NCBI GenBank assembly: GCA_038207395.1 | Contig: JBBQZW010000002.1 | Span: forward strand, 309-64,308 | Length of the DNA stretch: 64,000 bases | Direction: 5' to 3' | DNA from: Minisyncoccia bacterium | Lineage (GTDB): Bacteria; Patescibacteriota; Minisyncoccia; Phycocordibacterales; Phycocordibacteraceae | Shown here: positions 4,186 through 48,635 of the stretch, one piece after another | Numbering within the stretch: position 1 is the stretch's first letter | How the letters are laid out: the number at the start of each line of letters is the position of its first letter | Position numbers and translations under genes: made by a program | The notes under the pieces: model-generated | What the model was told of the DNA's origin: nothing | The model's database searches: none | The model's input: the letters and a program-made list of their open reading frames with translations, nothing else

Positions 4186-4208
4186 ATAATTGTTCTAAAT
4201 TTCTAAAG

Positions 4209-4703
4209 TTACGCCGTCTTCTTCTGCGCAATCTGGTCGAGCGCAATAACAAGTCCCTGAATTGGACTGTTAAGTACGTTGACGAACATACCACGGAGGA
4301 CTGGTACCGGCGGAATTGTTGCTATAGCGCGCATTCCTGTAGCGTCCAAGAAACTGTTTTCGAACACCCCTCCCATGATTGAGAGTGAATCCTTATGCTT
4401 CTTGCCGGCTTCAAAGATGCCACGTGCTGCGGCGGTTGCGTCATCGTTAGACCACGCCAGAGCGAGTTCACCTGGCATATCAGGAAGTGATCCTTCATAG
4501 CCATTTGAGGTGAGCACACGCTTAACGAGTGTCTTCTTTGCAACGTAGTAGCCGACGCCTTCTTCTTTAAGAGCCTTACGCATTGCTGAGGTGTCAGCAA
4601 CTGAAAGACCCTTGAAGTTAACGAAGACAACAGACACTGCGTCCTTGAGCGAATCCGTCACCTTAGCGACAATGTCCTCTTTTTTTGTTTTGGTAATTGC
4701 CAT
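4209..4703 (-). CDS. rplJ: 50S ribosomal protein L10
   Basis: MAITKTKKEDIVAKVTDSLKDAVSVVFVNFKGLSVADTSAMRKALKEEGVGYYVAKKTLVKR is the canonical L10 N-terminus, in rplJ-rplL order. Confidence 0.9.
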   Translation of the reverse strand: MAITKTKKEDIVAKVTDSLKDAVSVVFVNFKGLSVADTSAMRKALKEEGVGYYVAKKTLVKRVLTSNGYEGSLPDMPGELALAWSNDDATAAARGIFEAGKKHKDSLSIMGGVFENSFLDATGMRAIATIPPVPVLRGMFVNVLNSPIQGLVIALDQIAQKKTA

Positions 4704-4912
4704 AATTTGGTTTTGATTCGTACGGCGAAACGGAAGATGGTCCGGGCTTGTGTGCCAGGACCATTTCCATAGAGGGGAGAACCACGGTGCGAGTAACCTC
4801 GTAGAGCGTAGTTTCGTTCCTCGGCCAGGCTTCTGGGAACACCTTTCGGCAATTCACCTGCTGGCTGTCTGCGGTCCGTACTTCCCTACCATACCGTACG
4901 TGACTATATAAC
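4704..4912 (-). promoter_or_regulatory. Long (about 200 nt) structured 5' UTR of rplJ, a candidate L10-leader autoregulatory element
   Basis: A GC-balanced, hairpin-rich 200 nt non-coding stretch lies between a terminator and the rplJ start. Across bacteria the rplJ leader is an L10(L12)4-binding RNA. No covariance-model search could be run. Confidence 0.35.
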
Positions 4913-4942
4913 GCAAAAGCCCCGCCGAGGCGGGGCTTTTGC
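4913..4942. terminator. Bidirectional intrinsic terminator (gcaaaa-GCCCCGCC gag GCGGGGC-ttttgc)
   Basis: 8 bp GC stem with a symmetric gcaaaa/ttttgc flank, downstream of the 670 aa surface-protein gene (minus strand). Confidence 0.7.
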
Positions 4943-5000
4943 TTACCAGGTTACTCTTTCGAGTTTACCTGTTCATAAGTGAGTCCGTTAGGACATCAGC

Positions 5001-7013
5001 TTATGGACGTGTCTTTGAGACAGTTACGTAGTTAACGTTCGTCGTGTAGTCGTTAGTGACGGTGCTTCCACCTGAGGTGTAAACAACGCTGTTAAGACGT
5101 ACAGAGTAGTCAGCTGATGGAAGATCAGAAGCTACAACAGTCTCGCCGGTTGCATCAACCTTGAATGTAACAGGGATGGATACCGTTGCATTGCGAGGAA
5201 GAGTGAATCCGAATGCTGAGAAGTTCGTTGTACCTGTTGGCTGTGTAGCTGGGTAGAACGTGCTTCGTGTAGCAGACGTGTTTCCTAGTACAACACCGTT
5301 CTTAAGAAGAACGAAGTTGAAGCTAGTCGTAGCGTTTCCAAACGTCGCGTCTGCACCGATAGCCGTAAGGTTAACGTTGAAGACTGATGAGAGGTGAGCT
5401 TCCGTTGTAGAACCTGCTGTTGACTTAGACGTCGTGATATCGATAGTCTTTGTGTCAAGAGTAAGTACTACACCCTTAGCAACGAGGGTCATTACTTCGC
5501 CAGCGCCAGTTGCAAGTGAGGTCGAACTGATTGTGCGACCTGTTCCTGTTGACTCAGCTGAAGTTACGCTAACATTTCCAACCTTGATAGTAGCTCCGCT
5601 CGTTACTGAACGGAAGTCTGCCTTAAGAAGGTAAGTCTTGTATGCATCCTTAGTGAGAGTCTGGTTGATTGACGTGAACAAGTAGATACCATTTGAGTCA
5701 GCTGATGCTGAAGCAATTGATGTTGATCCGTCGTAGAGGTAAAGAGTCTGTAGGTTTGCAGATGAGGTAGCTGTGTTTGCAACAGTTACGCTAAGATCAC
5801 GCATAAGTACATTGTCTTTTTCAGCAAGAAGGCGGAATGAACCAACTTCTTCCATGTCTACTTCGTTGTTGTTTGCACCCTTGTTAGCAACGATCGTAGC
5901 GGCCTTGCGAACGCTAGGGTCAGTTGAAACGGTAAGAGTTGCAGTGTCAGAAAGGTTTGAAGAAACCGTTACTGACTGAGTGATGTTTTGTGCACCACTT
6001 GAGTACTGGTCGATACCTGCACCGTCAGTAGCACGGATTGCATCAGTTTCGTAGAAGCTGAATGTCTTTGATCCCTGGTACTGAGTGCTGATGCTTGGGT
6101 AAAGATCAACCTTTACGTAGAGAGGTAGTTTCTGATCCTTCTTTACAAGGTAGTCGAATCCAGAAAGCGTTACATAGTATGTAGGAATTGTTCCTGATAC
6201 ACGAGTAACGGTTGATGAATTCAAGTCCTGTGAAGCAAGAACGTTTCCACTTCCATCAGTGAGGTAGATGCGGCTGTAAAGCTTGGTGTATGAGTCAGTC
6301 GTTGTTCCGAGGTTTACACGGACACGGCTAACAAGTACGTCTGAGCTCTTTGCCTCAACACGTACACCGAGAACTGCAGCTTTTGAGTCACCTTCGTAAA
6401 GGTTTGTCTTAATACCTGAAGTTTCCTTCTCGATGTTGATGGTTCCTTCAGCTCCAACGGTAGTGATACTGCCATTTGTAGTTGTAGTTGTAGTTGTTCC
6501 GCTTGAACAAGAAACACCTGTTGTTGGGCTGAATCCTGCAGTTGAAAGACAACCTGCTGGAAGACTCGTGCTTGTTGCACAAGAAGCACCAGTTGTTGGG
6601 CTGAATCCTGCAGTTGACGTACAACCTGCTGGGAGACCAGTTGTTGTTGTCGTAGTGCTTGAACCGTTAGCAGCTACCTGGGCGCGAGTGATCGGACCGA
6701 AGTAACCTACTGCTGGAGAAATACCTACTGAAGCCTGGTAAGAACCAAGAGCTGCCTTCGTCTGTGCTCCGAAGTATCCGGTTGCGCCAGCGGCGATGGT
6801 GAAGCCCTTGTTGATAAGCCACGTCTGAAGTGCAGTTACATCAGCACCGGTTGAACCGATGGTGAGGTTACGCGTAAACGTAGCTGAAGCGGTCGTAGTA
6901 GTTGTTGTTGTCGTTGTCTGTGCTCCTGCGAAAGGAACGAAAGACGTAGCGACGAGGGCGAGCCCTGCAACTGCTGCTGCGACACGTGCAACATTGTTGG
7001 TTGCTGTAGTCAT
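5001..7013 (-). CDS. Secreted cell-surface protein, Thr-rich, with a peptidoglycan-binding-like domain and Cys-containing tandem modules
   Basis: Signal peptide MTTATNNVARVAAAVAGLALVATS. PG_binding_1-like segment TALQTWLINKGFTIAAGATGYFGAQTKAALGSYQ. Two tandem LPAGCxSTAGFSPTTGxSC modules are encoded by a near-perfect nucleotide duplication (about 6514-6560 and 6592-6640). Poly-Thr linkers are present. Confidence 0.65.
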   Translation of the reverse strand: MTTATNNVARVAAAVAGLALVATSFVPFAGAQTTTTTTTTTASATFTRNLTIGSTGADVTALQTWLINKGFTIAAGATGYFGAQTKAALGSYQASVGISPAVGYFGPITRAQVAANGSSTTTTTTGLPAGCTSTAGFSPTTGASCATSTSLPAGCLSTAGFSPTTGVSCSSGTTTTTTTNGSITTVGAEGTINIEKETSGIKTNLYEGDSKAAVLGVRVEAKSSDVLVSRVRVNLGTTTDSYTKLYSRIYLTDGSGNVLASQDLNSSTVTRVSGTIPTYYVTLSGFDYLVKKDQKLPLYVKVDLYPSISTQYQGSKTFSFYETDAIRATDGAGIDQYSSGAQNITQSVTVSSNLSDTATLTVSTDPSVRKAATIVANKGANNNEVDMEEVGSFRLLAEKDNVLMRDLSVTVANTATSSANLQTLYLYDGSTSIASASADSNGIYLFTSINQTLTKDAYKTYLLKADFRSVTSGATIKVGNVSVTSAESTGTGRTISSTSLATGAGEVMTLVAKGVVLTLDTKTIDITTSKSTAGSTTEAHLSSVFNVNLTAIGADATFGNATTSFNFVLLKNGVVLGNTSATRSTFYPATQPTGTTNFSAFGFTLPRNATVSIPVTFKVDATGETVVASDLPSADYSVRLNSVVYTSGGSTVTNDYTTNVNYVTVSKTRP

Positions 7014-8538: not shown

Positions 8539-10770
8539 ATGGCAAAGCGAAAGTCGAAGAAGCGAGACGCAGAAAATATGGACGCGCTAGTTACCTGGGC
8601 TAGCGGTGTTTTATTAATTGCGCTTGGACTTATACTCGCGCTTGGCGCGGCAGGGTACGCTACAGGCAGTAACTTTGGAGGTGATATCGGTAACCTTATT
8701 TTTACCTATACCTATCAGGGATTGGGTATAGCCGCCTTCCTCTTACCGATAGGTGTTGCTGCTGCTGGTATCGGTGTTCTTATGAAAAGCAGTTTCAAAC
8801 CAACACTCACCAGTGTTGGTTTTACGCTCATACTGCTTTCAGCACTTACGTTCCTCGGTGCGGTCGACCCGAATATCGAAGGAGGTGTTGGTCCCGGGGG
8901 TTTAGCAGGAACATGGGCAGGACTTGAGGCAATTCATCTCTTTGGATTTGCCGGAGCAGTCATACTTTTAAGTGCGCTTATATTAGTAGGCCTTGGTCTC
9001 GTAACTGACATACAGACTCTCTTCGCTCAGATTGGAGCGGTGGGCAGTAGAGCCGGTGAGGCACTTACCTCCATTAAGCTTCCTTCACGAAGTAAGGTGG
9101 AAGATAGCGATGAGGAAGATGCTGAAGAAGAACCTGTTGAAATTCCAGCTACAGGATCTGTTGAGACTACAGACGTTCCTGAGCGTGAACCTACCGTTAC
9201 CCATTTCAATGAAAACATTGCAACTGGAGGAATAGCACCCGGCGCTATTCCAAGTTTTGATGCTGAATATAACCCTCCTCCCCTTTCACTTCTTGGTGTT
9301 GATAAAGGAAAACCTGGAGTTGGTGATATTAAGGCAAATGCAAATATCATAAAGCGCACCTTTATTAACTTTGGTATTTCTGTGGAGATGGATGAAGTAT
9401 CTGTCGGACCAACAGTTACCCGCTACGCCATCAAACCTGCTGAAGGTGTCCGTCTTTCAAAGATAGTTGCCCTTCAGCAGAATCTTGAGCTTGCCCTTGC
9501 TGCGCATCCTGTTCGTATTGAAGCTCCTATTCCCGGTAAGTCGCTAGTAGGTATTGAGGTACCAAATGCATCAAAGGCAATGGTCGGTCTTGGTGGCATT
9601 ATGAATGCTCCTGAGTGGAATACGAGCACGAAGCCGCTCCTTGCCGCTATTGGGCGTGATATTGCCGGAACTCCTCATTACGTGAACGTTGCGAAGATGC
9701 CTCATGGTCTTATCGCAGGCGCTACAGGTTCTGGAAAGTCCGTTGCTATCCATGCAGTTATCGCTTCCCTCTTGTATCGAAATGGTCCAAATGCCCTTCG
9801 TTTTATTATGGTTGATCCTAAACGCGTTGAACTTACCCTTTATAACGGCATTCCTCATCTCCTTACGCCTGTAATTACGGATCCTAAAAAAGCCATCATG
9901 TCTCTCAAATGGGCAGCAAAAGAAATGGATCGCCGTTACGGCATCCTTGAAGGTGAACAGGTTCGCGATATTGATTCGTACCATAAAACGGTACTTGAGC
10001 CGGCAAAGAAGAAAGCTGAAAAGAATCCAGGGCTTGAGATTCCAGAAGCACTCCCCTACATCGTTATCGTTATCGATGAGCTCGCTGATATCATGCAGAC
10101 CTTCCCCCGTGAACTTGAAGCAGCTATCGTCCGCCTCGCACAGATGTCACGCGCTGTGGGTATTCACCTCATTCTTTCTACCCAACGTCCGTCCGTGAAC
10201 GTTATTACCGGTCTCATTAAAGCGAACGTTCCGACCCGTCTTGCCCTACAGGTTTCTTCTCAGATTGATTCACGTACTATTTTGGACACCGGTGGTGCTG
10301 AACAGCTTCTTGGTGCTGGTGACATGCTCTACATGAGCGCAGATATGCAAAAGCCGGTACGTGTCCAGACTGCATTTATTTCAGAAAGTGAGGTTAAAAA
10401 GGTTGCTCAATATATTAAGCAAAACAATGCAGGTAACCTCACCTCTATGGACCTCACGGGAGGTGCTGTGGCCGTACATGAGAATAACGACGCCGTGATG
10501 CTTGGTTCTGGTATGCAGGACATGATGGATGACGACAGCGATGATGACCTCTACATGGAAGCAAAGTCAGCGGTAGAGGAGGCTGGACGCGCTTCAACGT
10601 CCTATCTCCAGCGTAAGCTTCGTATCGGATACTCTCGTGCTGCCCGTCTTATGGATATCCTCGAAGAAAAAGGTGTTATTGGTCCTGCAGACGGATCCCG
10701 TCCCCGTGAAATCCTCAGCCAGGGTGGCTCTGGTGGAAGTGCTCCAGATACAGAAGAAGAGGATCTGTAG
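8539..10770 (+). CDS. ftsK: DNA translocase FtsK/SpoIIIE
   Basis: N-terminal TM region, Walker A GATGSGKSVAIHAVIASLL, DELAD Walker B and a C-terminal gamma (wHTH) domain YLQRKLRIGYSRAARLMDILEEKGVIGP. Confidence 0.9.
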   Translation: MAKRKSKKRDAENMDALVTWASGVLLIALGLILALGAAGYATGSNFGGDIGNLIFTYTYQGLGIAAFLLPIGVAAAGIGVLMKSSFKPTLTSVGFTLILLSALTFLGAVDPNIEGGVGPGGLAGTWAGLEAIHLFGFAGAVILLSALILVGLGLVTDIQTLFAQIGAVGSRAGEALTSIKLPSRSKVEDSDEEDAEEEPVEIPATGSVETTDVPEREPTVTHFNENIATGGIAPGAIPSFDAEYNPPPLSLLGVDKGKPGVGDIKANANIIKRTFINFGISVEMDEVSVGPTVTRYAIKPAEGVRLSKIVALQQNLELALAAHPVRIEAPIPGKSLVGIEVPNASKAMVGLGGIMNAPEWNTSTKPLLAAIGRDIAGTPHYVNVAKMPHGLIAGATGSGKSVAIHAVIASLLYRNGPNALRFIMVDPKRVELTLYNGIPHLLTPVITDPKKAIMSLKWAAKEMDRRYGILEGEQVRDIDSYHKTVLEPAKKKAEKNPGLEIPEALPYIVIVIDELADIMQTFPRELEAAIVRLAQMSRAVGIHLILSTQRPSVNVITGLIKANVPTRLALQVSSQIDSRTILDTGGAEQLLGAGDMLYMSADMQKPVRVQTAFISESEVKKVAQYIKQNNAGNLTSMDLTGGAVAVHENNDAVMLGSGMQDMMDDDSDDDLYMEAKSAVEEAGRASTSYLQRKLRIGYSRAARLMDILEEKGVIGPADGSRPREILSQGGSGGSAPDTEEEDL

Positions 10771-10776
10771 CCCCTT

Positions 10777-11100
10777 ATGAGCCTTACGACCCGCGCAATA
10801 AGCATATTCCTCCTACTCCTCGTGCTCTCCTATGGCTTTGTGAAGGCACTTCCCCTCCTACGAGGACCCAGTATCAGCATCTCAAGCATAACGACCAACG
10901 AAGTAGGCTTAACGCTTCTTTCAGGAACGGCAGCTCATACTGAAAAACTGTCTCTAAATGGAGGCACGCAATTGATTGATAGCGAGGGTCATTTCTCGAC
11001 CCAGCTGATGCTTCCCCGCGGAGGCGCTATACTTAGCCTAACGGCAACCGACCGCTTTGGGCGCAGCCGAACGCTTGAGCGGACCGTGATTACCCCGTAA
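10777..11100 (+). CDS. Small membrane-anchored hypothetical protein
   Basis: 107 aa ORF with an N-terminal hydrophobic anchor, [15 protein letters not shown]. It starts 7 nt after the ftsK stop. Confidence 0.35.
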
Positions 11101-11123
11101 TTTATCATTTTAGATCTCGTTAT

Positions 11124-12239
11124 ATGCCAGCAAAGAAAGTCGCAAAGTTCTCAAAAAAGAAAAGCACCTCTACCCCCGAAGAAGAAATGGGTATGGAAGC
11201 TGATGTAGATATTGATGCCGAAGATACTCCGAAAGGTCCTAAGGATACTGACGCTGAGGCTCGCAGAAAATCTATCGAGCTTGCGATAAAGGAAATCAAA
11301 ACAAAATTCGGTGATGAAGCAATAATGACGTACGGCTCGACGAAACCGTCAGCTATTGAATCCATCCCAACCGGCTCTATCGGTCTTGATGCCGCACTTG
11401 GTATCGGCGGACTTCCCCGTGGACGTATCATTGAAATATTTGGCCCGGAGTCTTCAGGTAAGACAACCCTTGCCTTGCACTCTATTGCAGAGGCGCAGAA
11501 GAAAGGTGGAGTATGTGCGTTTGTGGATGCTGAGCACGCGCTTGATCCTGAGTATGCACGAAAGATTGGGGTGAAGCTCGGAGAGCTTCTTATCTCACAG
11601 CCTGACACCGGAGAACAAGCGCTTGAGATTGTTGAATCTCTTGTCCGTGCAAACTCCGTAGACATCATTGTTGTGGACTCGGTCGCAGCACTCACACCAA
11701 AAGATGAGATCGAAGGCGACATGGGAGCACACCACGTGGGTAAGCAGGCGCGTCTCATGAGCCAGGCACTTCGAAAGCTGACCGCCATCACGGCAAAGTC
11801 AAAGACGACCGTTATTTTCATTAACCAGATCCGCATGCAGATTGGCGTGATGTTTGGTAACCCAGAAACAACTCCCGGTGGTAAGGCACTTAAGTTCTAT
11901 ACGTCTGTTCGTCTTGATATACGCCGTATCGCGCAGATTAAGAAGGGTGAGGAGATTGTGGGAGGACGCGTTCGTGTGAAGGTTGTTAAGAACAAAGTGG
12001 CCGCTCCATTCAAGACCACTGAGTTTGATCTTATGTACAACGAAGGTATTTCCCGAGAAGGTGAGATCATCGCACTCGGTGAGAAGTATGACATTGTGAC
12101 AAAGTCAGGCTCAAGCTACAGCTATGGTGAACAGAAGCTCGGCCGTGGGTATGACGCAACGCGCACGTTCCTTCGTGAGAATAAACCTATCGCAACAGAG
12201 ATTCTGAAGAAGATTCGGGTTGAGTTGGATAAGGCGTAA
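11124..12239 (+). CDS. recA: Recombinase A, with an acidic N-terminal extension of about 40 aa
   Basis: [54 protein letters not shown] and the rest of the protein are canonical RecA. Confidence 0.95.
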
Positions 12240-12244
12240 ATAGT

Positions 12245-12384
12245 AAAAACAAAAACACTCCGTTTGCGAGAGCGCTCCGGGCCACCCCAAGGGTACTTCC
12301 AAATTACTAAGTCACTACGTTCTTAAGTAATTTGGGGTGCGCTAGGCCCGGGTCTTACTCTCGCAAACGGAGTGTTTTTGTTTT
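12245..12384. terminator. 140 nt quasi-palindrome with a perfect 27 bp outer stem and nested inner stems, a probable bidirectional terminator between recA and the anti-sigma gene
   Basis: aaaaacaaaaacactccgtttgcgagag (12245-12272) is exactly complementary to ctctcgcaaacggagtgtttttgtttt (12358-12384). Inner pairs ccgggcc/ggcccgg, accccaa/ttggggt and ccaaattactaag/cttaagtaatttgg are also present. Confidence 0.55.
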
Positions 12385-12392
12385 CCCGTATC

Positions 12393-12731
12393 TTACGTGG
12401 TGAGTCGAGAGAGAGGTTTAATCCTGACTAGACGAACTACTTCACACAGAAACCAAAATATAGCGACAAAGACAAGAAGTATGAGTATCTGAACAATGAA
12501 ATGAGTGTGTGAAAAAGCTGAAAGTCCAAATCGGATAACGCCAGGAATATCTGTACTGCTTGGCATATTTTGAAACACCCGTGCAACCCATACTTCCCTA
12601 CCAATTACATATAGTGCGGCGATAAGTGTTAGTACTGAAATACCTATCCCGGTTGCAGAGGTGCGGAGCGCATGAATGGTGCGAATGCGCTGCATTACTA
12701 TTTCTTGGATACGTGAATTATTCATAATCAT
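12393..12731 (-). CDS. Small single-pass membrane protein, a candidate anti-sigma factor
   Basis: 112 aa ORF with one TM helix, overlapping the stop of the upstream ECF sigma gene by 14 nt (translational coupling). Confidence 0.4.
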   Translation of the reverse strand: MIMNNSRIQEIVMQRIRTIHALRTSATGIGISVLTLIAALYVIGREVWVARVFQNMPSSTDIPGVIRFGLSAFSHTHFIVQILILLVFVAIFWFLCEVVRLVRIKPLSRLTT

Positions 12732-13320
12732 GAGTAGAGTGAGTCATTGCTTCTTTTGCTATTTTCTTTGCTCGGAACACCCGCGTCTTTATGGCCGGTA
12801 CCGTCGCACCTTCCAGAAGCGCAATTTCTTCCTGCGTCTTACCTTCAAGAAACTGAAGCCGTAAAAGGCGTGCGCACGATTCAGGGACTCGGGATAACAC
12901 ATTAAGGACTTCATTTCGAATTGATAATTCGTCCAGAAATGATTCAGTATCCGGGAGTCGTTCAAATGCTTCGGACTCTAAGGCGAGCATACGTCCATTG
13001 TCCCTCTTTAACTTCTGATATCGGGTGAAGCAAAGACGGGTGAGAATAGTATAGGCCCATGAAGAAAATTGTGCCCCTGACTGTGCCTCATATTTATCTG
13101 CATAGAGATATATACGGGTAAACGTGTCTTGGACCACTTCTTGAGCATCCTCATGGGAACGCAGGATGTGCTTGGCACGACGAAGGAATGGGGATTCATA
13201 TCGTTCTACGAGAATAGCGAAGGCATCTGGGAGATCTTTGGACGCGAAAAGGACCTCCTCATCGGGGGCGTCTTTCAGAGTCTCGAGCGATTTTGAATAC
13301 CGCATTACGTCTTGTATCAT
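12718..13320 (-). CDS. RNA polymerase sigma-70 family factor, ECF subfamily
   Basis: Region 2 VVQDTFTRIYLYADKYEAQSGAQFSSWAYTI and region 4 LQFLEGKTQEEIALLEGATVPAIKTRVFRAKKIAKEAM. Confidence 0.8.
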   Translation of the reverse strand: MIQDVMRYSKSLETLKDAPDEEVLFASKDLPDAFAILVERYESPFLRRAKHILRSHEDAQEVVQDTFTRIYLYADKYEAQSGAQFSSWAYTILTRLCFTRYQKLKRDNGRMLALESEAFERLPDTESFLDELSIRNEVLNVLSRVPESCARLLRLQFLEGKTQEEIALLEGATVPAIKTRVFRAKKIAKEAMTHSTHDYE

Positions 13321-13416
13321 ACCCCAGTCGGCTTAGTACCCATATCAGGGTACTAGCTATAACCTCCGGCATCTCGCATTCGTTTCAATTATTCCTCTTT
13401 TCAGTATCATTCCCCT

Positions 13417-13992
13417 ATGGCAATCCTTTCCTATAACGAAATAACACAGAAGAAAGTCATTGAGTACAACAATGAACCATACGAAGTACTTTCTTCGCAC
13501 GTCTTTCGTATGCAGCAGCGCAAACCAGTGAATCAGACAAAACTACGTCATTTAGTGTCTGGCAAAGTAACCGAAATTTCATTCCACCAAAGCGAAACGG
13601 TTCCAGAAGCAGACATTAGTAAGATGCAGGCGCAGTACCTGTATACGAACCGCGGAGAGTCCTGGTTCGCTGAAGAAGGTAACGCGAAGAATCGGTTCGC
13701 CTTTCCTGAAGCAGATGTCTCAGACAAAGTGAAGTGGCTAAAGATTGGATCGACCGTCGAGGTAATGCTTTACAAGGACAATCCTGCAACTATCGATATT
13801 CCGATCAAAATTGAACTTACGGTTACAGAAGCTCCTCCAGGAATTAAGGGCGACACCGCAACTGGCGGAAATAAGCTCGTGAAGCTTGAATCAGGAGCAG
13901 GAGTTCTAACTCCCCTCTTCATAAACGAAGGTGATGTTATTCGTATCAATAGCGATACAGGTGAATACGTGGAGCGAGTGAACAAAGCGTAG
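13417..13992 (+). CDS. efp: Elongation factor P
   Basis: 191 aa with three-domain EF-P architecture. The KPG motif region reads VFRMQQRKPVNQTKLRHLVSGKV. Confidence 0.9.
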   Translation: MAILSYNEITQKKVIEYNNEPYEVLSSHVFRMQQRKPVNQTKLRHLVSGKVTEISFHQSETVPEADISKMQAQYLYTNRGESWFAEEGNAKNRFAFPEADVSDKVKWLKIGSTVEVMLYKDNPATIDIPIKIELTVTEAPPGIKGDTATGGNKLVKLESGAGVLTPLFINEGDVIRINSDTGEYVERVNKA

Positions 13993-14053
13993 AGAAAACA
14001 AAAAACTTCCCGCAACCAGATCATTTAGGTTGCGGGAAGTTTTTTGTTTTCTA
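13993..14053. terminator. Bidirectional intrinsic terminator (22 bp perfect stem, agaaaacaaaaaacttcccgcaacc / ggttgcgggaagttttttgttttct)
   Basis: Perfect inverted repeat with A-tract and T-tract flanks, between convergent efp (+) and rpsR (-). Confidence 0.7.
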
Positions 14054-14059
14054 TCTAAA

Positions 14060-14266
14060 CTACGCAGCAAGATATGGCAGAAGTGCCATATAGCGAGCAC
14101 GCTTGATTGCAAGGGTGATTTCGCGCTGCTTTCCTGAGCTCATTCCCGTTCGCTTCTTCGCAAGAATCTTTGCGTGTGGATTCATGAACTGGCGGAGATA
14201 CGCTACGTCCTTATAGTCTACAAATTTCTTGTGCTCAAGTTCTTCGCGCTGTGATTGATGTGCCAT
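14060..14266 (-). CDS. rpsR: 30S ribosomal protein S18
   Basis: MAHQSQREELEHKKFVDYKDVAYLRQFMNPHAKILAKKRTGMSSGKQREITLAIKRARYMALLPY is canonical S18. Confidence 0.9.
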   Translation of the reverse strand: MAHQSQREELEHKKFVDYKDVAYLRQFMNPHAKILAKKRTGMSSGKQREITLAIKRARYMALLPYLAA

Positions 14267-14366
14267 GGATACTTTTGTTAACAGAGTGAAACTCTGGGGT
14301 GTTAGTAGGAGCTAGGCTCCGGCTGGGTAATACGAGGAGTATGCCTCGGGGGTTAGTAAATTGCAA
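14267..14366 (-). promoter_or_regulatory. Promoter (-35 TTGCAA at 14361-14366, 17 nt spacer, -10 CATACT at 14338-14343) and conserved 5' leader of rpsR, a duplicate of the rpsF leader
   Basis: 59 nt are identical to the segment upstream of rpsF, split by a 24 nt hairpin insertion (acagagtgaaactctggggtgtta). The -35/-10 spacing is identical in both copies. Confidence 0.5.
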
Positions 14367-14385
14367 ACGAGAGAGCGTTCTGGGT

Positions 14386-14910
14386 CTAAAACGGAATATC
14401 CTCTGGGTTGATCTCATCATCCGGATACTGGATGGATTCTCCACCCACTGAAGGTCCTCCGAAGTCGTCCATTGGATTTCCTGATGCAGCTGAGGGCGCG
14501 CTTGATGGGCGTGATGAGCTTCCGTCAGCACTCTGAGCACCTGAGCTCATTCCGCCCATTCCTGGGCCTCCAGCACCCGCTCCTCCTGCCTGAGGGCCAA
14601 ACTGGAAGTTATCAACAACGATTTCCGTACGGTAATTCTTCTTTCCATCTGCTTCCCACGAACGAGTCTGGATGCGTCCTTCAAGAAACACCGGACGTCC
14701 CTTCTTTAGATACTGCCCAATGACTTCAGCCTGGCGACCAAATGCCACAATATTGTGATATTCCGTCTGATCCTGCTGCTGTCCCTCTTTGTTTTTAAAG
14801 GAACGGTTGGTGGCAATAGAGAAACTTGCTACTTGCTGCCCTCCGGGGAGCGCACGCAGTTCTGGGTCGCGGGTAAGGTTTCCGTAGAGGAATGCTTTGT
14901 TGAGATACAT
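14386..14910 (-). CDS. ssb: Single-stranded DNA-binding protein
   Basis: OB-fold N-terminus MYLNKAFLYGNLTRDPELR..., a Gly-rich linker and the C-terminal acidic tip DDEINPEDIPF. Confidence 0.9.
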   Translation of the reverse strand: MYLNKAFLYGNLTRDPELRALPGGQQVASFSIATNRSFKNKEGQQQDQTEYHNIVAFGRQAEVIGQYLKKGRPVFLEGRIQTRSWEADGKKNYRTEIVVDNFQFGPQAGGAGAGGPGMGGMSSGAQSADGSSSRPSSAPSAASGNPMDDFGGPSVGGESIQYPDDEINPEDIPF

Positions 14911-42915: not shown

Positions 42916-42988
42916 GGGCGATTAGCTCAGTTGGTAGAGCGCTTCATTTACACTGAAGATGTCGGGGGTTCGAGCCCTCCATCGCCCA
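42916..42988 (+). tRNA. tRNA-Val (anticodon TAC), no encoded CCA
   Basis: Hand-folded: acceptor GGGCGAT/ATCGCCC, anticodon loop TTTACAC, T-loop TTCGAGC. Confidence 0.8.
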
Positions 42989-42994
42989 CAAAAT

Positions 42995-43026
42995 AAAAAC
43001 AGACTGTCTTCAGACAGTCTGTTTTT
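42995..43026 (+). terminator. Intrinsic terminator (AAAAACAGACTGTC ttca GACAGTCTGTTTTT)
   Basis: 14 bp perfect stem plus a T-run, 7 nt after tRNA-Val. Confidence 0.7.
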
Positions 43027-43134
43027 ATATCTTTATGGGAGTGCCCCTCCACGGTATCGCACCGTGTCAGGTGAGGCAACGCAAGGGCCATTTGACGCAT
43101 TGAACACGAGCCAGTTCGATGCCTAACGGTAGGG

Positions 43135-43605
43135 TTGTAAATGAGACAAATGAGACACTACTCGCGCATGTCTGGAACTGTCTTATTTACGGCATTCTAG
43201 CAAGTAGAATAAGCGTATTTGAGCTTTTAAGCGTTGTCTCATAAGCATTTCAAACGAGCCACACGGTATCGCACTGGAATCCGACAAATCCGACACCATA
43301 AAAGCGAGAAATATTACAAATCTGACAGGGGGTACGCGAGGCGAAATGCCAACAAATGCCAATTTTTAACAATCTACCAGAGAGAAAATGGCACACTTTG
43401 GCACACATATACGGGGTGTGCCGACAGACTGTCTTTACCCGTCTCCCACATCTCTCCACGAGACAAATCCTCGCTATTCTGGGACTTTTGGGACAGCTCC
43501 ATGTTCCGAAGGGAGGGTGCCATTTTGTAGGGAAGAAATGATATAAAATGCAACGTCAGATTGGAGTTTCATCATGTTGCATTTCGGCAAAATGTGACAA
43601 AAGTG
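43135..43605. repeat. Non-coding array of tandemly duplicated 8-10 bp GACA/GCCA/GGCACA-core motifs (iteron-like)
   Basis: aatgagaca x2 (43140-43157); aatccgaca x2 (43278-43295); aaatgccaa(c/t) x2 (43345-43364); tggcacac x2 (43389-43406); gagacaaatcc (43460); tgggac x2 (43480-43495); (t/a)gtgaca x2 (43585-43600). No ORF exceeds noise level. Confidence 0.55.
43259..43275 (+). repeat. Direct repeat CCACACGGTATCGCACT (copy B). Copy A is CCACGGTATCGCACC at 43049-43063 and copy C is at 48179-48195.
   Basis: 17/17 identity between 43259-43275 and 48179-48195, and a 14 nt core at 43049-43063 that forms a CACGGT-n5-ACCGTG palindrome. Confidence 0.5.
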
Positions 43606-43637
43606 ACACGGGAATGCGGCATCCTACTGTCATTCTG

Positions 43638-45422
43638 TTACTTCTCTCCCAACACCTGAGATCGATACATTTGCGCATAAAGCCCGTCTTCCTTCATAAG
43701 TTCTGTATGGGTACCCTCCGCAGCCAGATTCCCTCCATCTAACACCAAGATATGATTGGCATTTCTAATAGTTGTAAACCGATGAGAAATAAAGAGGATT
43801 GTTATGTTATTGGGTAACATGCTGAGGTTTTGGAAAATAGCCTCCTCCGAAAGAGCGTCAATAGAACTTGTGGGTTCATCAAGCACAACAAAATTCGCGG
43901 CGCGTGAAAGAGTCCGTGCTATAGCAATCTTCTGGAACTGCCCTCCCGATAACTCTTTGCCGCCGTATTCAGAACTTTGCATTAAATCAAGGCCGGTTTC
44001 CTTGTCGATAATTGAGTCAGCGCTAGATTTTCTTAATAAGTCGTATATTTCGTCATCACTCAAGTCTTTTTTAGAAAAGAGTTCAATAGACTCTTTAATG
44101 GACAGGTAATCGTACCTAGAAAAATCCTGCATAAGCACTCCTAGGTTTTCATACCATGAAGCCAGGTCTACTTCTCGTAAGTCAACGCCGTTTATTAAAA
44201 TTCGACCGGCAGTCGGATCATACATCCTGAGAAGAAGCTTTATGAGAGTTGATTTACCAGCACCATTTAAACCAACGAGGGCAAGTTTCTCTCCAGAAGC
44301 TATCTCAAAAGAAATATCGTTTAGAACAAAATCCTCCTTCCCTGGATATCGGAATGAAACCGCATCAAACGTAATACTTATCTTAGAATCCGCAGGAAGC
44401 TTGACTGGGTTTTCTGTGATATCGATCATTGGTTTAGTGGCAAGGTAGTCTTTTACGTGCTTAATGTAGGGAATTGTCTCATTAATTTCACTTATGCTTT
44501 TGACTACTCCCGCCAGCGAAGAGTTAACGGAGTACAAGACACCAAAAGCAAATACTATTTCGCCAATGGAGAGAACTCCGAGATAACCTTGTAAGACTAT
44601 AAAGTACAACGCTCCGCCAATACTGGCTGTTTCAATAATTTTTACAGCAATATTCGGAACAATAAACTTTTTCTCAATACCGGTATCTTGCTCATATCTC
44701 TTATTTAAGAAGAGATCTATTTTGTTCAAAAGAGCCCACGTTCTGTTCGAAATAATTAATTCTTGTATGGTCCGTTTGGATTGAAACGAATCTCTCATTG
44801 ACCAGAACGCTCGCCTTTCAGTCGTGAGACTGTCCCAAGCCTCTCGTTTATTCCTTGTATAGAAAACTTCTAAAACAAATGCAGGTATTGTTCCTAAGAC
44901 AACTGAAAGTGCTGCGATAGGATGAATTGAGAAAATTATTCCTGCTCCAAGAATAAGCGCTATCAGCAGGCCAGTAAGTTGTGATATTTCATTAGGTAGA
45001 GCACGCAACTGATAAAGCGCTCGGTCGTAGACCTTGTTCTTAAGGTCTTGAAATTCTGGCTGTTCAATTCTACCTATATCAAGGCTTGCGTAGTGACGTA
45101 GCAGTAATTGAGTGTAGTGTCTTTCTTGCTTATCCGTGAAGACCGCGTTAATCAGTGACCAATTCAAATAGGTTAAAGTATCTCTTACTGCGGTAAAACT
45201 CAGCAGAATGAGTGCAGGTATGATGACTACCCAAATGCCTTCGTGAACTCTGGAAAATGAATCAATCAGATTACCTTGTAGCTTTGCATACACAATAAAG
45301 AATACGGAGAGTAGGATCGTAGCAATATTTGCAATGACGAATAAAAACGGAGATATCTTAAAAGATTGGAGAACTGACCACCACGCAAGTGATGTCGCAT
45401 CCCTTAAGCGGGTAATTCTCAT
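43638..45422 (-). CDS. ABC transporter, fused permease plus ATPase (exporter type)
   Basis: N-terminal 6-TM domain. Walker A GLNGAGKST, signature LSGGQFQKIAIARTL, Walker B FVVLDEPTSSID and an H-loop. Confidence 0.85.
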   Translation of the reverse strand: MRITRLRDATSLAWWSVLQSFKISPFLFVIANIATILLSVFFIVYAKLQGNLIDSFSRVHEGIWVVIIPALILLSFTAVRDTLTYLNWSLINAVFTDKQERHYTQLLLRHYASLDIGRIEQPEFQDLKNKVYDRALYQLRALPNEISQLTGLLIALILGAGIIFSIHPIAALSVVLGTIPAFVLEVFYTRNKREAWDSLTTERRAFWSMRDSFQSKRTIQELIISNRTWALLNKIDLFLNKRYEQDTGIEKKFIVPNIAVKIIETASIGGALYFIVLQGYLGVLSIGEIVFAFGVLYSVNSSLAGVVKSISEINETIPYIKHVKDYLATKPMIDITENPVKLPADSKISITFDAVSFRYPGKEDFVLNDISFEIASGEKLALVGLNGAGKSTLIKLLLRMYDPTAGRILINGVDLREVDLASWYENLGVLMQDFSRYDYLSIKESIELFSKKDLSDDEIYDLLRKSSADSIIDKETGLDLMQSSEYGGKELSGGQFQKIAIARTLSRAANFVVLDEPTSSIDALSEEAIFQNLSMLPNNITILFISHRFTTIRNANHILVLDGGNLAAEGTHTELMKEDGLYAQMYRSQVLGEK

Positions 45423-46552
45423 ATCGGATACTTATTCATAACTTCTATAAATTTAGCTTCCGTTTCAGGCGTAATTGCAGCGAAGAAGGGGGTCATGTTG
45501 TTGTCGAGTCCTGTGTCTGCAATATAGTGCTCCCGTGCGTAGTCCAAGTGCTTTTGAGTAAAAGTCTCATTACCCTTAAAACCAAAGTAATTTTTTAGTT
45601 GTGCCATCCGCTCGGTTATCTCCTCGGGCTTCTGTAGATAGTTTGCAAATCGGTTCTGGGGGTCTTCTGTGACAGCTACATTCTGGAGTTCTCTTAGAAC
45701 ATCGAGATCGAGAACAGATTGAATCTCAGTCGCGTCAGATCCTTGAAAATCCCGCATACCGTGTCCTTTCTCGTGAGCTTCAATAATCATTTTTTGCCGC
45801 ACAGTGAGAGGTCCACTCTCGCGCGACTCGCCATCAGAAAATACGACACCAGGCTCACCGATATTTCCCATGCCCGCGTTTGTGGGCTTCTTTCCGTATT
45901 CAGCCGCATTGCCTATCTGGGTATGGCTAAATATAGAATCGATATTCTTGTCGTAATTCTCAATCTGGCTTTCGTAGTGTGAGCGAAATTTCTTCGGCTT
46001 ATCGTAGAGCCCCACAGTCCCTTCTTTTAAAGAAGATAAAGCTTCTAATCTAGTGTCAAAAAACTTCTGCTTGATAGCTGGATCCCCTAACCTCTCCTGA
46101 AGCACTAATGTCCAGTGGCCTGGATAGTTTGCTTGCGAGCGAATAACTTCTGCTTCAAGCGCGTCTATATCAAAAGACTCTTGAGTTAAATCTTGATCAG
46201 AATTCAACCCTAATGACTCACGCACTTGAGACAGTTTTCCCCTAGAAGTCTCTTCTTTTAGCGAGGCCTCAAGCTTAGCTTCTGCCGCGGTTCTGTTGCT
46301 TTGATAAGCATTGATAGATTCCATTTCTGAACTCCTTTCTGGAGAAGGGTCACTCTGGTCTAAGTCCTCTAGACCATCTTTTTGTTTTTCCTCAGCAGGA
46401 AGGGGGCGGGGAGGATTCTCATTCATATTAGTAATTATAGCTTGAGACGTGAACTCGGGTGTAAGGTTCCCAACAACCCCTCCTGGACTCCCAGGACACT
46501 CTGCGTCATCCATTAGACCGTTATCAATAACGGCACAATATGGAAACAGCAA
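45419..46552 (-). CDS. Hypothetical protein with an HExxH motif (possible metallopeptidase-like), translationally coupled to the ABC exporter
   Basis: 377 aa [16 protein letters not shown] contains HExxH. The acidic N-terminal half is low-complexity. Its stop overlaps the ABC gene start (atga). Confidence 0.45.
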
Positions 46553-47865
46553 TGATTCAGGGCGGTTTTGGGGCTCCTACAGCTCCTATGGTGGCAGTAG
46601 CAGTTAAATACTGCCTATACGCCCGTAAGAGCACCGAGAGCGAAGAACAGCAGGTATTGAGCATTGATAGCCAAATCAAGGAAATGCTAGCGATGGCTGA
46701 GCGGGAGAAACTAGAGATTGTGGATATAAAGCGCGAGTCGCATTCCGCAAAGGAGGCTGGTGCGCGTCCCGTGTTCAACGAGATCGTAGAAGAGATACGG
46801 AGCGGCAAATATACCGGAGTCCTCACCTGGGCGCCAGATCGCATCTCGCGCAACGCCGGCGACCTCGGACGCATCGTGGACCTCATGGACCAAGGACTCC
46901 TGATCGATATCCGCACATACGGTCAGCAGTTTACGAACAACCCGAATGAGAAATTTCTCCTCATGATTCTTGGCTCGCAGGCGAAATTGGAGAACGATCA
47001 AAAGCGTATCAATGTGAAGCGCGGGCTGAAAGCGAGAGCGGAGATGGGGCTCTTCCCTTGCACTGCTCCAACCGGGTATATCAATGACAATCGCTCGGAT
47101 CATCGTTGCGAGATTGTCGTCGATACCATCCGCGCTCCTTTGATGAAGCAGATGTTCGAGAAAGTCGGAACTGAACGATGGAGTGGACGCAGAACTTATC
47201 TGTGGCTCAAGAACGATGCCCGCTTCACCGGAAAGAGCGGCAAGCCCTTAAGCCTGAGCAACGTATACAACCTCCTCCGCAATCCTTTCTATTGCGGCGT
47301 GTTCGAGTATCCGCGCGGCTCAGGAAGCTGGTATACCGGCAAGCACCAACCACTCATAGATCAAGAGTTATATCAGGCAGTGCAAGACAAACTTGCCGAA
47401 GAGACGAGAAAGAAGATAGCTCAAAACGATTTCACCTTCACCAAGCTCATGTCCTGCGGATTGTGCGGGAGTGGTATTACGGCGCAGGAGAAATCGAAAG
47501 CCCTCAAGGACGGTTCAACGAACTGGTACATCTACTACTCCTGCACAAAGAGTCGTGACAAAAATTGCAAGAACCCATTTATTCGCGAAGACCACCTCAT
47601 TACACAACTCCTCGCCATCATCGACCAGATATCCATCGACGAGATCGGCGCGCGAAATCTGATTGAGCGCGAGGTGCACCGATACAACACTCTGCGGGCA
47701 GAGGTTGAGGGTATGTCAGAAACAATGAAGGCTAAAGAGATGGACTTCAGGAAGTATGCAAAGTATCTCCTCAAGAACGGGAGCCGGATTGAACAGCGAG
47801 AGCTACTCGAACATCTAAAGGACCGGTTGGTATTACAAGACCGAATAGTTAGTCTCGGTGCTTGA
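46540..47865 (+). CDS. Large serine recombinase (resolvase/invertase catalytic domain, recombinase domain and zinc ribbon)
   Basis: Catalytic region [24 protein letters not shown] (Ser nucleophile context) and Cys cluster CGLCGSGIT...[12 protein letters not shown]. At 441 aa. Confidence 0.85.
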
Positions 47866-48139
47866 GCAATATTTCAGCAGGAGACAAGCCGTCGAGGAGG
47901 CGGTGCGGGAAGCAGTTCCAAGTGTCAGTAACGAGTTCAACAGCGTTACTTAGATTCGCAAGGTCGCCGGCATCAAACATCATGATGACGGACTGCATGT
48001 CATCGGTCTCCTCTTCTTCGTATATGGCAGCAAGCACGTCGGGAAGCGTGAAGTCGCTCCCTGTTTCTTTAAGGAGATCGATAATGTCTGCCTCTAATTC
48101 CTCACGGAATTCGAGCAACTCTTCCATGCTTTCGGGCAT
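47849..48139 (-). CDS. Small acidic hypothetical protein
   Basis: 96 aa Glu/Asp-rich ORF convergent with the recombinase gene. Confidence 0.35.
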
Positions 48140-48178
48140 GGAGAAATGATATGCGAAGGAAGTTTAGAGAGCAATCAC

Positions 48179-48195
48179 CCCACACGGTATCGCAC
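48179..48195 (+). repeat. Direct repeat CCACACGGTATCGCACT (copy C), 45 nt from tRNA-Arg
   Basis: Identical to 43259-43275. Confidence 0.5.
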
Positions 48196-48239
48196 TTTTT
48201 ATGAGGCCTCACGGTCGTTATTAAGGCCGCTGACTGCTG

Positions 48240-48311
48240 TGCCCTCACCTGGAATCGAACCAAGATCAAGAGCTTAGAAGTCTCCTGCTCTATCCATTGA
48301 GCTATGAGGGC
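48240..48311 (-). tRNA. tRNA-Arg (anticodon TCT), no encoded CCA
   Basis: Hand-folded: acceptor GCCCTCA/TGAGGGC, D-loop AATGGATA, anticodon loop CTTCTAA, T-loop TTCGATT. There is one A31-G39 mismatch in the anticodon stem. Confidence 0.7.
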
Positions 48312-48341
48312 AGTTAAGGCGAACGAGTACAGCGTAGCGCG

Positions 48342-48635
48342 TTACAGCGAAGGGTCAACAAAGCGATACTCGCTTGTGTATCTTGCGCGCTCCGCTGCAC
48401 GCTGTTCGAAGAGTGCCTTAACAGTATCCAACTGAATTTGAGGGGCGGGTGCTGGAGGAGGTCCGCCGATTGTTTGTCCCTTTGTTATTTGCTCGAAAAG
48501 CCATAAATTCCAGGCAATACTTACACCGAGCGCAACACTAAACAGTACAAGAAGTACGTACCAGTCCCGCGCAGGACGTAGTCGTGCGCCATATTTGAAA
48601 AAGTTTAGTAGTGAACGTATGCGGAAAGACTTCAT
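48342..48635 (-). CDS. Small membrane protein, possibly a pilus-assembly accessory
   Basis: 97 aa with one TM helix (WYVLLVLFSVALGVSIAW), last gene of the pilM-N-O string. Confidence 0.35.
   Translation of the reverse strand: MKSFRIRSLLNFFKYGARLRPARDWYVLLVLFSVALGVSIAWNLWLFEQITKGQTIGGPPPAPAPQIQLDTVKALFEQRAAERARYTSEYRFVDPSL

Follow-up and report, generated by a model that had tools for sequence, protein, structure and literature searches.

We examined a 64,000 nt stretch of genomic DNA from a Minisyncoccia bacterium (Patescibacteriota; GenBank assembly GCA_038207395.1, contig JBBQZW010000002.1, positions 309 to 64,308), referred to below as the window, and in it the interval between a tRNA-Val and a tRNA-Arg gene. 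Positions 43041-48238 very probably constitute an integrated site-specific element of ~5.2 kb, whose integrase is a 441 aa large serine recombinase (LSR) and which is inserted at the 3' end of the tRNA-Arg gene. To its left lies tRNA-Val(TAC) (42916-42989, plus strand; called by ARAGORN and Rfam, and also present in relatives L002-L012), followed at 42993-43028 by a perfect 17 bp palindrome with A- and T-runs, a hairpin that we read as a bidirectional terminator of the host. The interval opens with ~600-650 nt devoid of any credible open reading frame (ORF). Four genes follow: an ABC exporter of 594 aa (43638-45422, minus strand; Pfam ABC_tran, PF00005, 3.6e-30), an ORF encoding an HExxH motif (open from 45419 to 46552 on the minus strand, with the probable gene, of 335 aa, at 45419-46426), the recombinase itself (46540-47865, plus strand; Pfam Resolvase, Recombinase, and Zn_ribbon_recom), and an acidic 96 aa ORF (47849-48139, minus strand), an accessory gene that adjoins the right end. 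The ABC and HExxH genes, which we regard as cargo, share one orientation, and the start codon of the former overlaps the stop codon of the latter by 4 nt. The presumed target, tRNA-Arg(TCT) (48239-48311, minus strand; ARAGORN, Rfam), provides the host side of the attachment site (attB), is intact, and is 100% identical to its copy in L002. Further out, Pfam confirmed ribosomal protein L19 (rplS) and an RluA-type pseudouridine synthase (rluA) on the left flank, and pilMNO was assigned on the other side from conserved synteny only. Both the flanks and the content of the interval (repeat array, ABC, HExxH, recombinase, and acidic genes; ARAGORN, Rfam, ORF calls, and Pfam) agree with a preliminary description of this DNA, which had proposed that a tRNA-flanked interval carrying a recombinase represents an integrated mobile element.

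That proposal is upheld by insertion polymorphism, by recurrence of the element with other cargo in another host, and by mosaic composition. A scan of genomes for RluA yielded eleven syntenic loci of Patescibacteria; the nearest contigs with RluA were from metagenome-assembled genomes of Parcubacteria, Kaiserbacteria, and Paceibacterota. Six of the eleven loci (L002, L003, L005, L008, L009, and L012) were used to study the gap. All six keep the order g255-pilM-N-O-X-tRNA-Arg(tct)-gap-tRNA-Val-RluA-L19, and in none does the gap hold the ABC, HExxH, recombinase, or acidic gene. Rather than content conserved in all relatives, the comparison that had been suggested at the outset therefore revealed both empty and alternative-content sites. 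The gap measures 41 nt in L005, 230 nt in L012, 258 nt in L009, 651 nt in L003, and 2292 nt in L002; in L008 it holds a tRNA-Leu gene. Against L002, the closest relative (84-90% protein identity), nucleotide homology of the window ends at 42998 and restarts at 48239, exactly at the 3' end of tRNA-Arg. L005 is an empty site, in which two convergent tRNAs are separated only by the 41 nt gap with one terminator hairpin, and joining window positions 42990-43040 to 48239 onward in silico gives the same layout of two convergent tRNAs and a single hairpin; the hairpin at 42993-43028 would then be the terminator that both tRNAs share in the empty site. Judged by these alignments, the window interval is an insertion.

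Other DNA has entered the same gap. In L002 (6196-8487) it carries two genes, one hypothetical (410 aa) and one that by eye is SPFH/band-7-like (270 aa), and neither a recombinase nor a flanking repeat was found in this 2.3 kb insert. The gap is a hotspot that has received insertions of more than one kind. The 258 nt insert of L009 (4101-4358) is bounded by direct repeats, 16 nt long, that copy the 3' end of tRNA-Arg (GTGCCCCCACCTGGAA), and in the 230 nt insert of L012 (8640-8869) the corresponding repeat is degenerate. Both contain CCGGCTTTCGATTCC, a forward T-arm-like motif, and on these features they resemble miniature elements, or relics of elements, at the same attB.

The boundaries of the element were defined by locus L027, where the recombinase (87% identical) and the acidic protein (80% identical) recur at the same tRNA-Arg(tct)/tRNA-Val site in a host whose own genes have diverged further from those of the window (RluA 69%, PilM 64%). 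The cargo of L027 is wholly different and includes a RelE-like ORF and a uracil-DNA glycosylase (UDG)-like ORF, both recognized by inspection of the translations. At the DNA level, the window and L027 are homologous in two stretches only, 43041-43160 and 46479-48385. As the first starts exactly at the 23-mer GTGCCCCTCCACGGTATCGCACC (43041-43063, plus strand) and the homology on the right leads to the tRNA, the element extends from 43041 to 48238/9, and by the same alignment 43161-46478 is the variable cargo segment. The conserved left arm (43041-43160, plus strand; 2990-3109 in L027) is 76.7% identical between the two loci. Its first 23 nt, the element side of the left attachment site (attL) and the first of three motif copies described below (copy A), are identical, and the remainder is ~76% identical. 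That the 23-mer stayed unchanged while the adjoining DNA diverged argues for selection on a working integration module, and not for decay.

The composition of the island is a mosaic that differs from the host core. The preliminary description had held that the ABC and hypothetical genes are AT-rich, and this stands for the ABC gene, whose GC content (0.405; z = -3.1) is the lowest among the 55 window genes. It does not stand for the HExxH gene, which is host-like (GC 0.447), nor for the recombinase (0.615; z = +4.8) and acidic (z = +4.4) genes, whose GC content at third codon positions (GC3) is high, both at 0.60-0.62 versus 0.418 +/- 0.041 in the core.

By its domain content, the 441 aa protein is a large serine recombinase. 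Pfam placed PF00239 at residues 26-170 (1.5e-21), PF07508 at 198-287 (6.6e-13), and PF13408 at 300-356 (5.6e-9); a YARKS motif with Ser31 can be read from the sequence, the protein matches the integrase family phrog_95 (2e-62), and its best match in the PDB is the SPbeta integrase (6.7e-10). Among NCBIfam models, CcrB scored 123.6 bits against a cut-off of 900, with CcrA and CcrC lower, and XisF scored 85.8 bits (2.9e-24) against a cut-off of 375. No phage or plasmid LSR in INPHARED or PLSDB is more than 27% identical to it. Homologues number in the thousands, at 55-91% identity, and every source name given for them is a Patescibacteria-type taxon or simply "bacterium"; the recombinase family appears to be specific to Patescibacteria.

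A metagenome scan with the recombinase gave 80 loci, and 83 recombinase loci were used for the ORF clustering and profile counts given below. A minus-strand tRNA gene lies within 450 nt of the recombinase stop codon in 15 of the 59 loci with at least 450 nt of downstream sequence, the expectation being ~0.014 per locus. Within the clade of at least 70% identity to the window enzyme, a tRNA 3' end adjoins in all nine loci with enough downstream flank, and these nine tRNAs comprise 8-9 species (Arg-tct, Ile, Gly-tcc, Arg-gcg, Glu, Leu, Met, Leu-like, and Gly-ccc). The junctions share a layout: recombinase stop codon, terminator hairpin, T-arm-like site, CnCGGT site, CTGAC(T/C)G(C/A/G)TG, and tRNA 3' end. 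In one locus (L035:3285-3357) a tRNA-Arg(ccg) gene belonging to the element stands between the recombinase stop codon and the right arm, the element itself being next to tRNA-Met. A complete relative is found in L089, where 15.1 kb lie between exact 27 nt direct repeats equal to the acceptor/T-arm 3' end of tRNA-Gln; the LSR is the sole recombinase recognized there, and among its cargo are a P-type ATPase set of the copper type, a ParB-methylase, and a TerS-like protein. We found no description of such elements in the literature on Patescibacteria or the Candidate Phyla Radiation combined with serine recombinases or integrases, and a family with many tRNA-gene targets and long, conserved, repeat-rich ends appears not to have been described previously.

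A recombinase at such a place might have nothing to do with the mobility of the DNA around it. The interval could be a fixed variable region in which a domesticated enzyme, similar to XisF or SpoIVCA, serves inversion or developmental excision and is not the integrase of the segment. The gap does vary in a relative with no recombinase there (the 410 aa ORF and SPFH-like gene of L002), and the HExxH gene has a host-like composition, but the recombinase gene lies 4.8 sd above the host genes in GC3, and the recombinase and both arms recur as a unit at the same tRNA in L027 with an identity above that of the host genes. The family stands consistently at the 3' ends of many kinds of tRNA, a complete element with 27 nt repeats exists in L089, and the XisF match (2.9e-24) that might suggest such a role is weak, at 85.8 bits versus 375. 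We consider domestication very improbable, and regard the recombinase as the integrase of the element.

The right arm, the element side of the attR site (48140-48238, plus strand), shows a motif order common to L027 and L029-L037: motif copy C, CCCCACACGGTATCGCACT, at 48178-48196, GGCCTCACGGTCG at 48205-48217, and CTGACTGCTG at 48230-48239, which abuts the tRNA 3' end. In more distant loci, the same order is present in variant form between recombinase and tRNA. The boundary coincides with the 3' end of an intact tRNA, 374 nt from the recombinase stop codon, with only the 96 aa gene between them. The 23-mer at the left end matches the tRNA-Arg 3' end (GTGCCCTCACCTGGAATCGAACC, 48238-48260) at 16 of 23 anchored positions, and matches the tRNA-Arg end of L027 itself at 17 of 23, the only exact common stretch being GTGCCC. 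Sites related to GTGCCCCTCCACGGTATCGCACC occur at the same place in L064, L068, L069, L089, and L097. A 17 nt exact repeat, CCACACGGTATCGCACT, is found at 43259 (copy B) and 48180, with a third copy of its 14 nt core at 43049, and matches nothing else in the window. Copy C repeats the look-alike site at a distance of ~45-60 nt into the right arm. The T-arm reads GGAATCGAACC, and the look-alike site GGTATCGCACC. Reconstructed from both ends, the attP junction would read from the right arm, ending in CTGACTGCTG, into the left arm, beginning with TGCCCCTCCACGG. Displaced tRNA fragments and right-arm repeats were also sought upstream of the recombinase in ~20 loci, and proved real only in the window, L027, and L089; weak repeat matches in L031, L037, and L072 fall within coding sequence, and we attribute them to chance.

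Homology with L027 also covers the DNA just upstream of the recombinase gene (46479-46539, plus strand; 6045-6106 in L027), which includes the palindrome CCGTTATCAATAACGG at 46518-46533, immediately before the recombinase start; its form in L027 is CCGTTAGCAACTAACGG (6084-6099). This region is a candidate promoter and autoregulatory operator of the recombinase gene. The AACGG half-sites of the CCGTTATCAATAACGG palindrome recur in the arm motifs CTAACGGTAGGG, CACGGTATCG, and CTCACGGTCG, which suggests autoregulation by the recombinase.

The non-coding DNA at the left of the island had been described as an iteron-like array of tandem short repeats. The repeats are real and lie where they had been placed, but they are not iterons of the classic, identical kind. 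Within the conserved left arm, seven loci with recombinases 54-87% identical to that of the window align over ~125 nt in a constant order: tRNA-end-like site, AAGCAnTATAAGG...TTT segment, palindrome-like CTCGGT(C/A)GGG site, and paired repeat. In the window, the partly palindromic site is GCCTAACGGTAGGG (43121-43134) and the first paired repeat is AAATGAGACAAATGAGACA (43139-43157). Further operator-like modules occupy 43161-43637 (plus strand): copy B (43259-43275) and directly after it AATCCGACAAATCCGACA (43278-43295), AAATGCCAACAAATGCCAA (43344-43362), AAATGGCACACTTTGGCACAC (43386-43406) with its inverted partner GGTGCCATTTT (43516-43526), GGGACTTTTGGGAC (43481-43494), the inverted pair AAAATGCAAC / GTTGCATTT (43546-43584), and AAATGTGACAAAAGTGACAC (43590-43609). 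Copy B stands 2 nt before the AATCCGACA pair, and L080 has a similar layout, with site and repeat pair upstream of the recombinase. The repeats are pairs of 9-11 nt units that differ from pair to pair, and no unit has more than two identical copies. The pattern TG(NN)AC-N2-6-TG(same NN)AC has four occurrences on both strands of the 64 kb window, all within 43142-43608, which is far beyond chance.

Related elements share these modules. Six other recombinase loci contain exact copies of the 17-mer AATGAGACAAATGAGAC, in every case on the recombinase strand and upstream of the gene, and an inverted copy, GTGTCTCATTT, usually stands 15-25 nt further on, often across a ACTATAAAAA box. In three loci, both repeat copies and the inverted copy read TGTTACA in place of TGAGACA, a concerted change that suggests a multimeric protein recognizes them. 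L064, L068, and L069 contain arrays of several modules, including a TGGCACA pair with an inverted copy, and the GGGCTTTTGGGC and GGGC(T)TTTTGGG types seen in the window. In L089, L097, and L115 (contig IMGVR_UViG_3300020195_001307), a homologous module with a TATAAA-like box lies 45-110 nt upstream of a gene start, and in L089 and L097 the 20-mer AAATGAGACAAATGAGACAC is 45-65 nt upstream. The same 20-mer is present in three IMG/VR contigs; in L115 it precedes an operon of two unknown genes, ParB-methylase, methylase, TerS, and TerL. The window modules themselves point toward the 3' end of the ABC gene, which is convergent with them, and have no ORF to drive; several of them may hence be vestigial. 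A scan of the island for sigma-70 promoters gave matches no more numerous than in shuffled sequence. A structured RNA in the left arm or array was rejected: the RNAalifold consensus energy was about zero, and Rfam returned only a sub-threshold match to RAGATH-36 (18.6 versus 70 bits).

Short direct repeats that cluster and recur about once per helical turn, together with the frequency of ParB-domain proteins in related elements, could indicate the replication origin (iterons) or partition site of a plasmid-like excised form. An iteron origin is recognized by at least three near-identical repeats of 17-22 bp beside a rep gene; here each unit occurs only twice, the units differ from each other, no Rep family and no Rep or Par gene is present in the island, and the ParB domains of the relatives are fused to phage-type DNA methylases (phrog_498) and are not partition proteins. 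The position of the module upstream of gene starts in L089, L097, and L115, with a TATAAA-like box, suits a promoter or operator better. An origin or partition site is hence improbable. Given its homology with the left-arm and operator DNA of related elements, the array is best read as a series of promoter/operator modules, which may also serve as accessory recombination sites, rather than as plasmid iterons.

We propose the following mechanism for an integrated element bounded by these arms. The recombinase would join attP (right arm plus left arm) to attB, which would consist of the last nucleotides of tRNA-Arg(TCT) and the downstream terminator, and it may do so to this day. Crossover would take place in or next to the GTGCCC common to both sites at the tRNA 3' terminus, and the tRNA would thereby stay intact; with only 6 nt exact in the flanking repeat, its position can be given no closer than in or near GTGCCC. 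As the left half-site GTGCCCCTCCACGGTATCGCACC resembles an acceptor/T-arm end, a single recombinase could bind both the tRNA end (B') and its look-alike (P'), and recognition of the conserved T-arm would explain the occurrence of close relatives at many different tRNA genes. The rest of the array would form a regulatory region in the left arm, with modules of two direct and often one inverted copy of AAATG-NN-ACA, to which a protein presumably binds; in relatives, AAATG-NN-ACA modules head the leftmost operon.

Several observations weigh against this proposal. The flanking repeat of the window is exact over only 6 nt (16 of 23 with mismatches), and the left ends were not found in most other loci, so that a complete, repeat-flanked element is documented once (L089). 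The attP junction pattern is absent from IMG/VR, and for this genome we found neither an excised circle, nor an attP junction, nor a read from an empty site; an exact-sequence look-up of the recombinase returned only one other contig, a 2.2 kb, 100% identical fragment. Copy B (43259-43275), although identical to copy C, has no explained role. The island contains no transfer, replication, or regulator gene and may be a fixed remnant. Finally, long conserved arms and tRNA targeting are atypical of LSRs, and a host factor or another protein could be involved.

Clustering of ORFs from the 83 recombinase loci identified a ParB-methylase and a TerS-like protein in 26, TerL in 10, and type I restriction-modification in ~10. 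The ParB-methylase, TerS-like, and TerL loci belong to more distant clades, 52-62% identical to the window enzyme, and the genes are usually directly upstream of the recombinase and co-oriented with it. Among L039-L106 the cassette reads ParB-N/DNA methylase, (methylase), TerS-like helix-turn-helix protein, (TerL), for example at L042:5936-9329, L082:4545-9278, and L088:3660-9305. The recurrent clusters of the recombinase loci included no capsid, portal, or tail family, and the lack of capsid and portal may indicate satellite-like elements. In the clade at least 70% identical to the window enzyme, none of the loci carries ParB-methylase, TerS, or TerL, including L030 and L031 with 8 kb of upstream sequence, and type I restriction-modification is likewise absent from this clade, to which the window belongs. 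In the 26 kb "viral" contig L115, positions 1-5363 are 100% identical to 9118-14480, a spacing of 9117 nt, which reflects a small circle assembled as a concatemer or else a long direct repeat. Its unit, headed by the AAATGAGACAAATGAGACAC module, encodes ParB-methylase, methylase, TerS, TerL, a PfkB kinase, a ribonucleotide reductase, and a NUDIX protein.

These findings bear on a further possibility, that the island is the remnant of a decayed prophage or phage satellite, which kept its integrase and att arms, lost its phage genes, and retained the array as orphaned promoters and operators. A phage remnant had been among the options named in the preliminary description. The distant clades (52-62%) do carry ParB-methylase with TerS-like protein (26 loci) and TerL (10), the 20-mer AAATGAGACAAATGAGACAC heads a packaging operon in L115, and the window modules face a convergent gene and drive no ORF. 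In the island itself nothing phage-like is left: PHROGs match only the ABC transporter (in the "moron" category) and the integrase, with no structural, packaging, or lysis gene. No locus of the clade at least 70% identical has ParB-methylase, TerS, or TerL, no capsid, portal, or tail family recurs, the recombinase is intact, and the 23 nt left site is unchanged between the window and L027. We regard decay of this kind as possible but doubtful; it overlaps with the reading of an integrated element and concerns its origin, not its mechanism. The small islands may be remnants of a lineage akin to the temperate phages or satellites of these bacteria, or an offshoot of it that is free of phage genes.

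Extended to the whole family, the integrated-element interpretation becomes more tentative. The recombinases might recognize a generic tRNA acceptor/T-arm end and be able to occupy almost any tRNA gene, with long, multi-site att arms (tRNA-end look-alikes, CTCGGT palindromes, and co-varying AAATG-NN-ACA pairs), unknown from characterized serine integrases, controlling directionality or expression, and the small islands might be the minimal form of a lineage to which terminase-bearing, possibly helper-dependent elements also belong. We offer this as a possibility, with more doubt than confidence.

Classic LSRs act on simple att sites of ~40-50 bp with a 2 bp crossover overlap, and their directionality is set by a recombination directionality factor (RDF). 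LSRs are not known to need accessory sites. The window family resembles the established LSR elements (phiC31, Bxb1, A118, SPbeta SprA, SCCmec CcrAB, and Tn4451/Tn5397) in its Resolvase, Recombinase, and Zn-ribbon architecture, in the location of the recombinase gene beside one element end, and in cargo that varies as it does in SCC cassettes. It differs from them in the low identity of the window recombinase to phage and plasmid LSRs (at most 27%), and in its long conserved arms with repeated motifs (120 nt or more at the left end, ~100 nt at the right), where the minimal attP of those elements is ~50 bp. The SCC-type cassettes, for which there are Ccr models, target rlmH (orfX), whereas the window enzyme scores below the CcrB cut-off and its target is a tRNA gene. 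Serine-recombinase elements typically insert within genes and have very short repeats, and it is tyrosine integrases that use tRNA 3' ends (PMC5704250). While characterized LSR elements insert inside protein genes (PMC5704250), the window family targets tRNA 3' ends and the gene is preserved.

The family also resembles the tRNA islands of tyrosine integrases (P4/SaPI/PICI-type islands, AICEs, and Prochlorococcus tycheposons), with which it shares insertion at a tRNA 3' end with reconstitution of the gene (27 nt in L089), an integrase adjoining the tRNA, small size, reuse of one tRNA site, and interchangeable cargo (type I restriction-modification, toxin-antitoxin, metal resistance, and ABC transporter). 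Unlike those islands, it has a serine enzyme and no recognizable excisionase, replication, or primase module, and the repeat of the window is degenerate, its element-side copy being a conserved look-alike of the tRNA end and not a copy of it. The repeated, protein-binding-like motifs over at least 100 nt on each side are reminiscent, at the level of sequence, of accessory-site systems such as Tn3/gamma-delta res and lambda-like attP arms, but part of the window array resembles promoter/operator DNA of the leftmost operon. Similarity to PICI-like packaging satellites (TerS/TerL) lies in the ParB-methylase, TerS-like protein, and sometimes TerL beside the integrase in distant family members, and in L089, which is only 15 kb and in which no capsid family was seen; in contrast, the window island and its close clade carry no packaging genes, and dependence on a helper phage would be conjecture.

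Mobile elements of Patescibacteria (Candidate Phyla Radiation) are almost undescribed. Taken alone, the window island is an ordinary small genomic island, and the wider value lies in its recombinase family, which appears to be specific to Patescibacteria, is found at many tRNA 3' ends, and has motif-rich arms. If the family interpretation is true, it would explain the exchange of defence, resistance, and transport genes at tRNA hotspots of these small-genome episymbionts, and it would mean that serine recombinases can use the tRNA 3'-end strategy usually credited to tyrosine integrases. It would also make available compact integrases of 441 aa with conserved tRNA-end targets, of possible use for engineering uncultivated or hard-to-transform lineages.

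We next consider the cargo. The ABC exporter is a half-transporter with fused transmembrane and nucleotide-binding domains, ABCB/MsbA-like, whose homologues form a small Patescibacteria clade (45-72% identical). Its best NCBIfam matches are MsbA-related and all far below cut-off, those to models of NHLM, HlyB, and bacteriocin exporters reach 150-207 bits against cut-offs of 524-853, and Pfam gave ABC_tran only, with no N-terminal peptidase domain. Among ABC homologues on large contigs, the closest (67%; L110:4371-14790) is the last gene of a three-gene operon that also encodes unknown proteins of 588 aa and 292 aa; the operon lies near a Fic gene, a DUF5659 gene, and a different serine recombinase of 583 aa, and looks like another mobile region.

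The HExxH protein had been given as 377 aa. The ORF and motif are present as described, but all 29 aligned homologues begin at M43 (46426), a TATAAT box lies 7 nt upstream of that ATG, and 46479-46540 is recombinase-upstream DNA common to L027 and not coding sequence for an HExxH N-terminus; the protein is therefore most likely 335 aa. Its family has more than 212 homologues, with invariant EAHEKGHG and EEIxERMxQLKNYFG motifs. In an AlphaFold2 (AF2) model (pLDDT 89.2), the HExxH motif lies in a helix at residues 209-224 and the invariant glutamates in a helix at 267-280. There was no sequence match in Pfam, NCBIfam, PHROG, or the PDB, no significant Foldseek match, and neither a signal peptide nor a membrane segment in the sequence and the model. 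The protein is most likely a putative cytoplasmic zincin-like metallohydrolase of a Patescibacteria-wide orphan family, and the family (window 45419-46426; homologues P0002-P0120) may represent an undescribed metallohydrolase fold.

In the preliminary description, the two cargo genes were viewed as a secreted or processed product with a dedicated exporter, perhaps an antagonistic module. As a functional pair, protease and exporter would serve the maturation and export of a bacteriocin, peptide, or effector, and the 4 nt overlap of the co-oriented genes, the invariant HExxH motif of the family, and the weak NCBIfam matches to exporters of the type I secretion and NHLM bacteriocin kinds, listed along with many ABCB families, would fit. 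The homologues tell otherwise: four HExxH homologues stand alone beside housekeeping genes without a co-oriented ABC partner, and three close ABC homologues have other neighbours and no HExxH protein. With these seven contexts and two direct protein comparisons, we rejected a conserved HExxH-ABC pair, which leaves the secreted-product idea unsupported. The exporter furthermore lacks a peptidase domain and best matches MsbA-type models, far below their cut-offs, the HExxH protein lacks a signal peptide or membrane segment, and the two genes differ in composition (GC 0.405 versus 0.447). No leader-peptide or substrate family was recognized by profiles among the ORFs of at least 50 aa in the interval, in a search that was not exhaustive. 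We therefore give the protease-exporter module little credence, and treat the ABC exporter and HExxH protein as exchangeable cargo that nothing observed here ties to one another or to mobility.

The acidic 96 aa protein, of which the 80% identical copy in L027 occupies the same position, has a C-terminal AWNxFPHxxLxGLSPAE motif (AWNYFPHxxLxGLSPAE). Its AF2 model is all-helical (pLDDT 94.8) and has no fold match in the PDB. By profile search, no more than 3 of the 83 recombinase loci carry it, and we rejected it as a family-wide RDF; by its position alone, it may be a candidate directionality factor for the subclade of the window. The domain forms 171 representative clusters, either stand-alone or within proteins of ~300 aa; it constitutes the C-terminal third of many ~300 aa proteins and the N-terminal part of ~230 aa proteins (P0242-P0390). 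A 418 aa member (P0261) shows a sub-threshold match to the UDG superfamily upstream of the acidic domain (20.7 versus 24.3 bits), and the W..FPH..L.G.SP.E motif gave only weak matches, to Xre_MbcA_ParS_C (E = 0.15).

In the left host flank, ribosomal protein L19 (41411-41947) is 178 aa long and has an acidic C-terminal extension of ~60 aa past the Pfam domain. This extension is common to L002, L003, L004, and L006, in which tblastn matches cover 165-174 aa.

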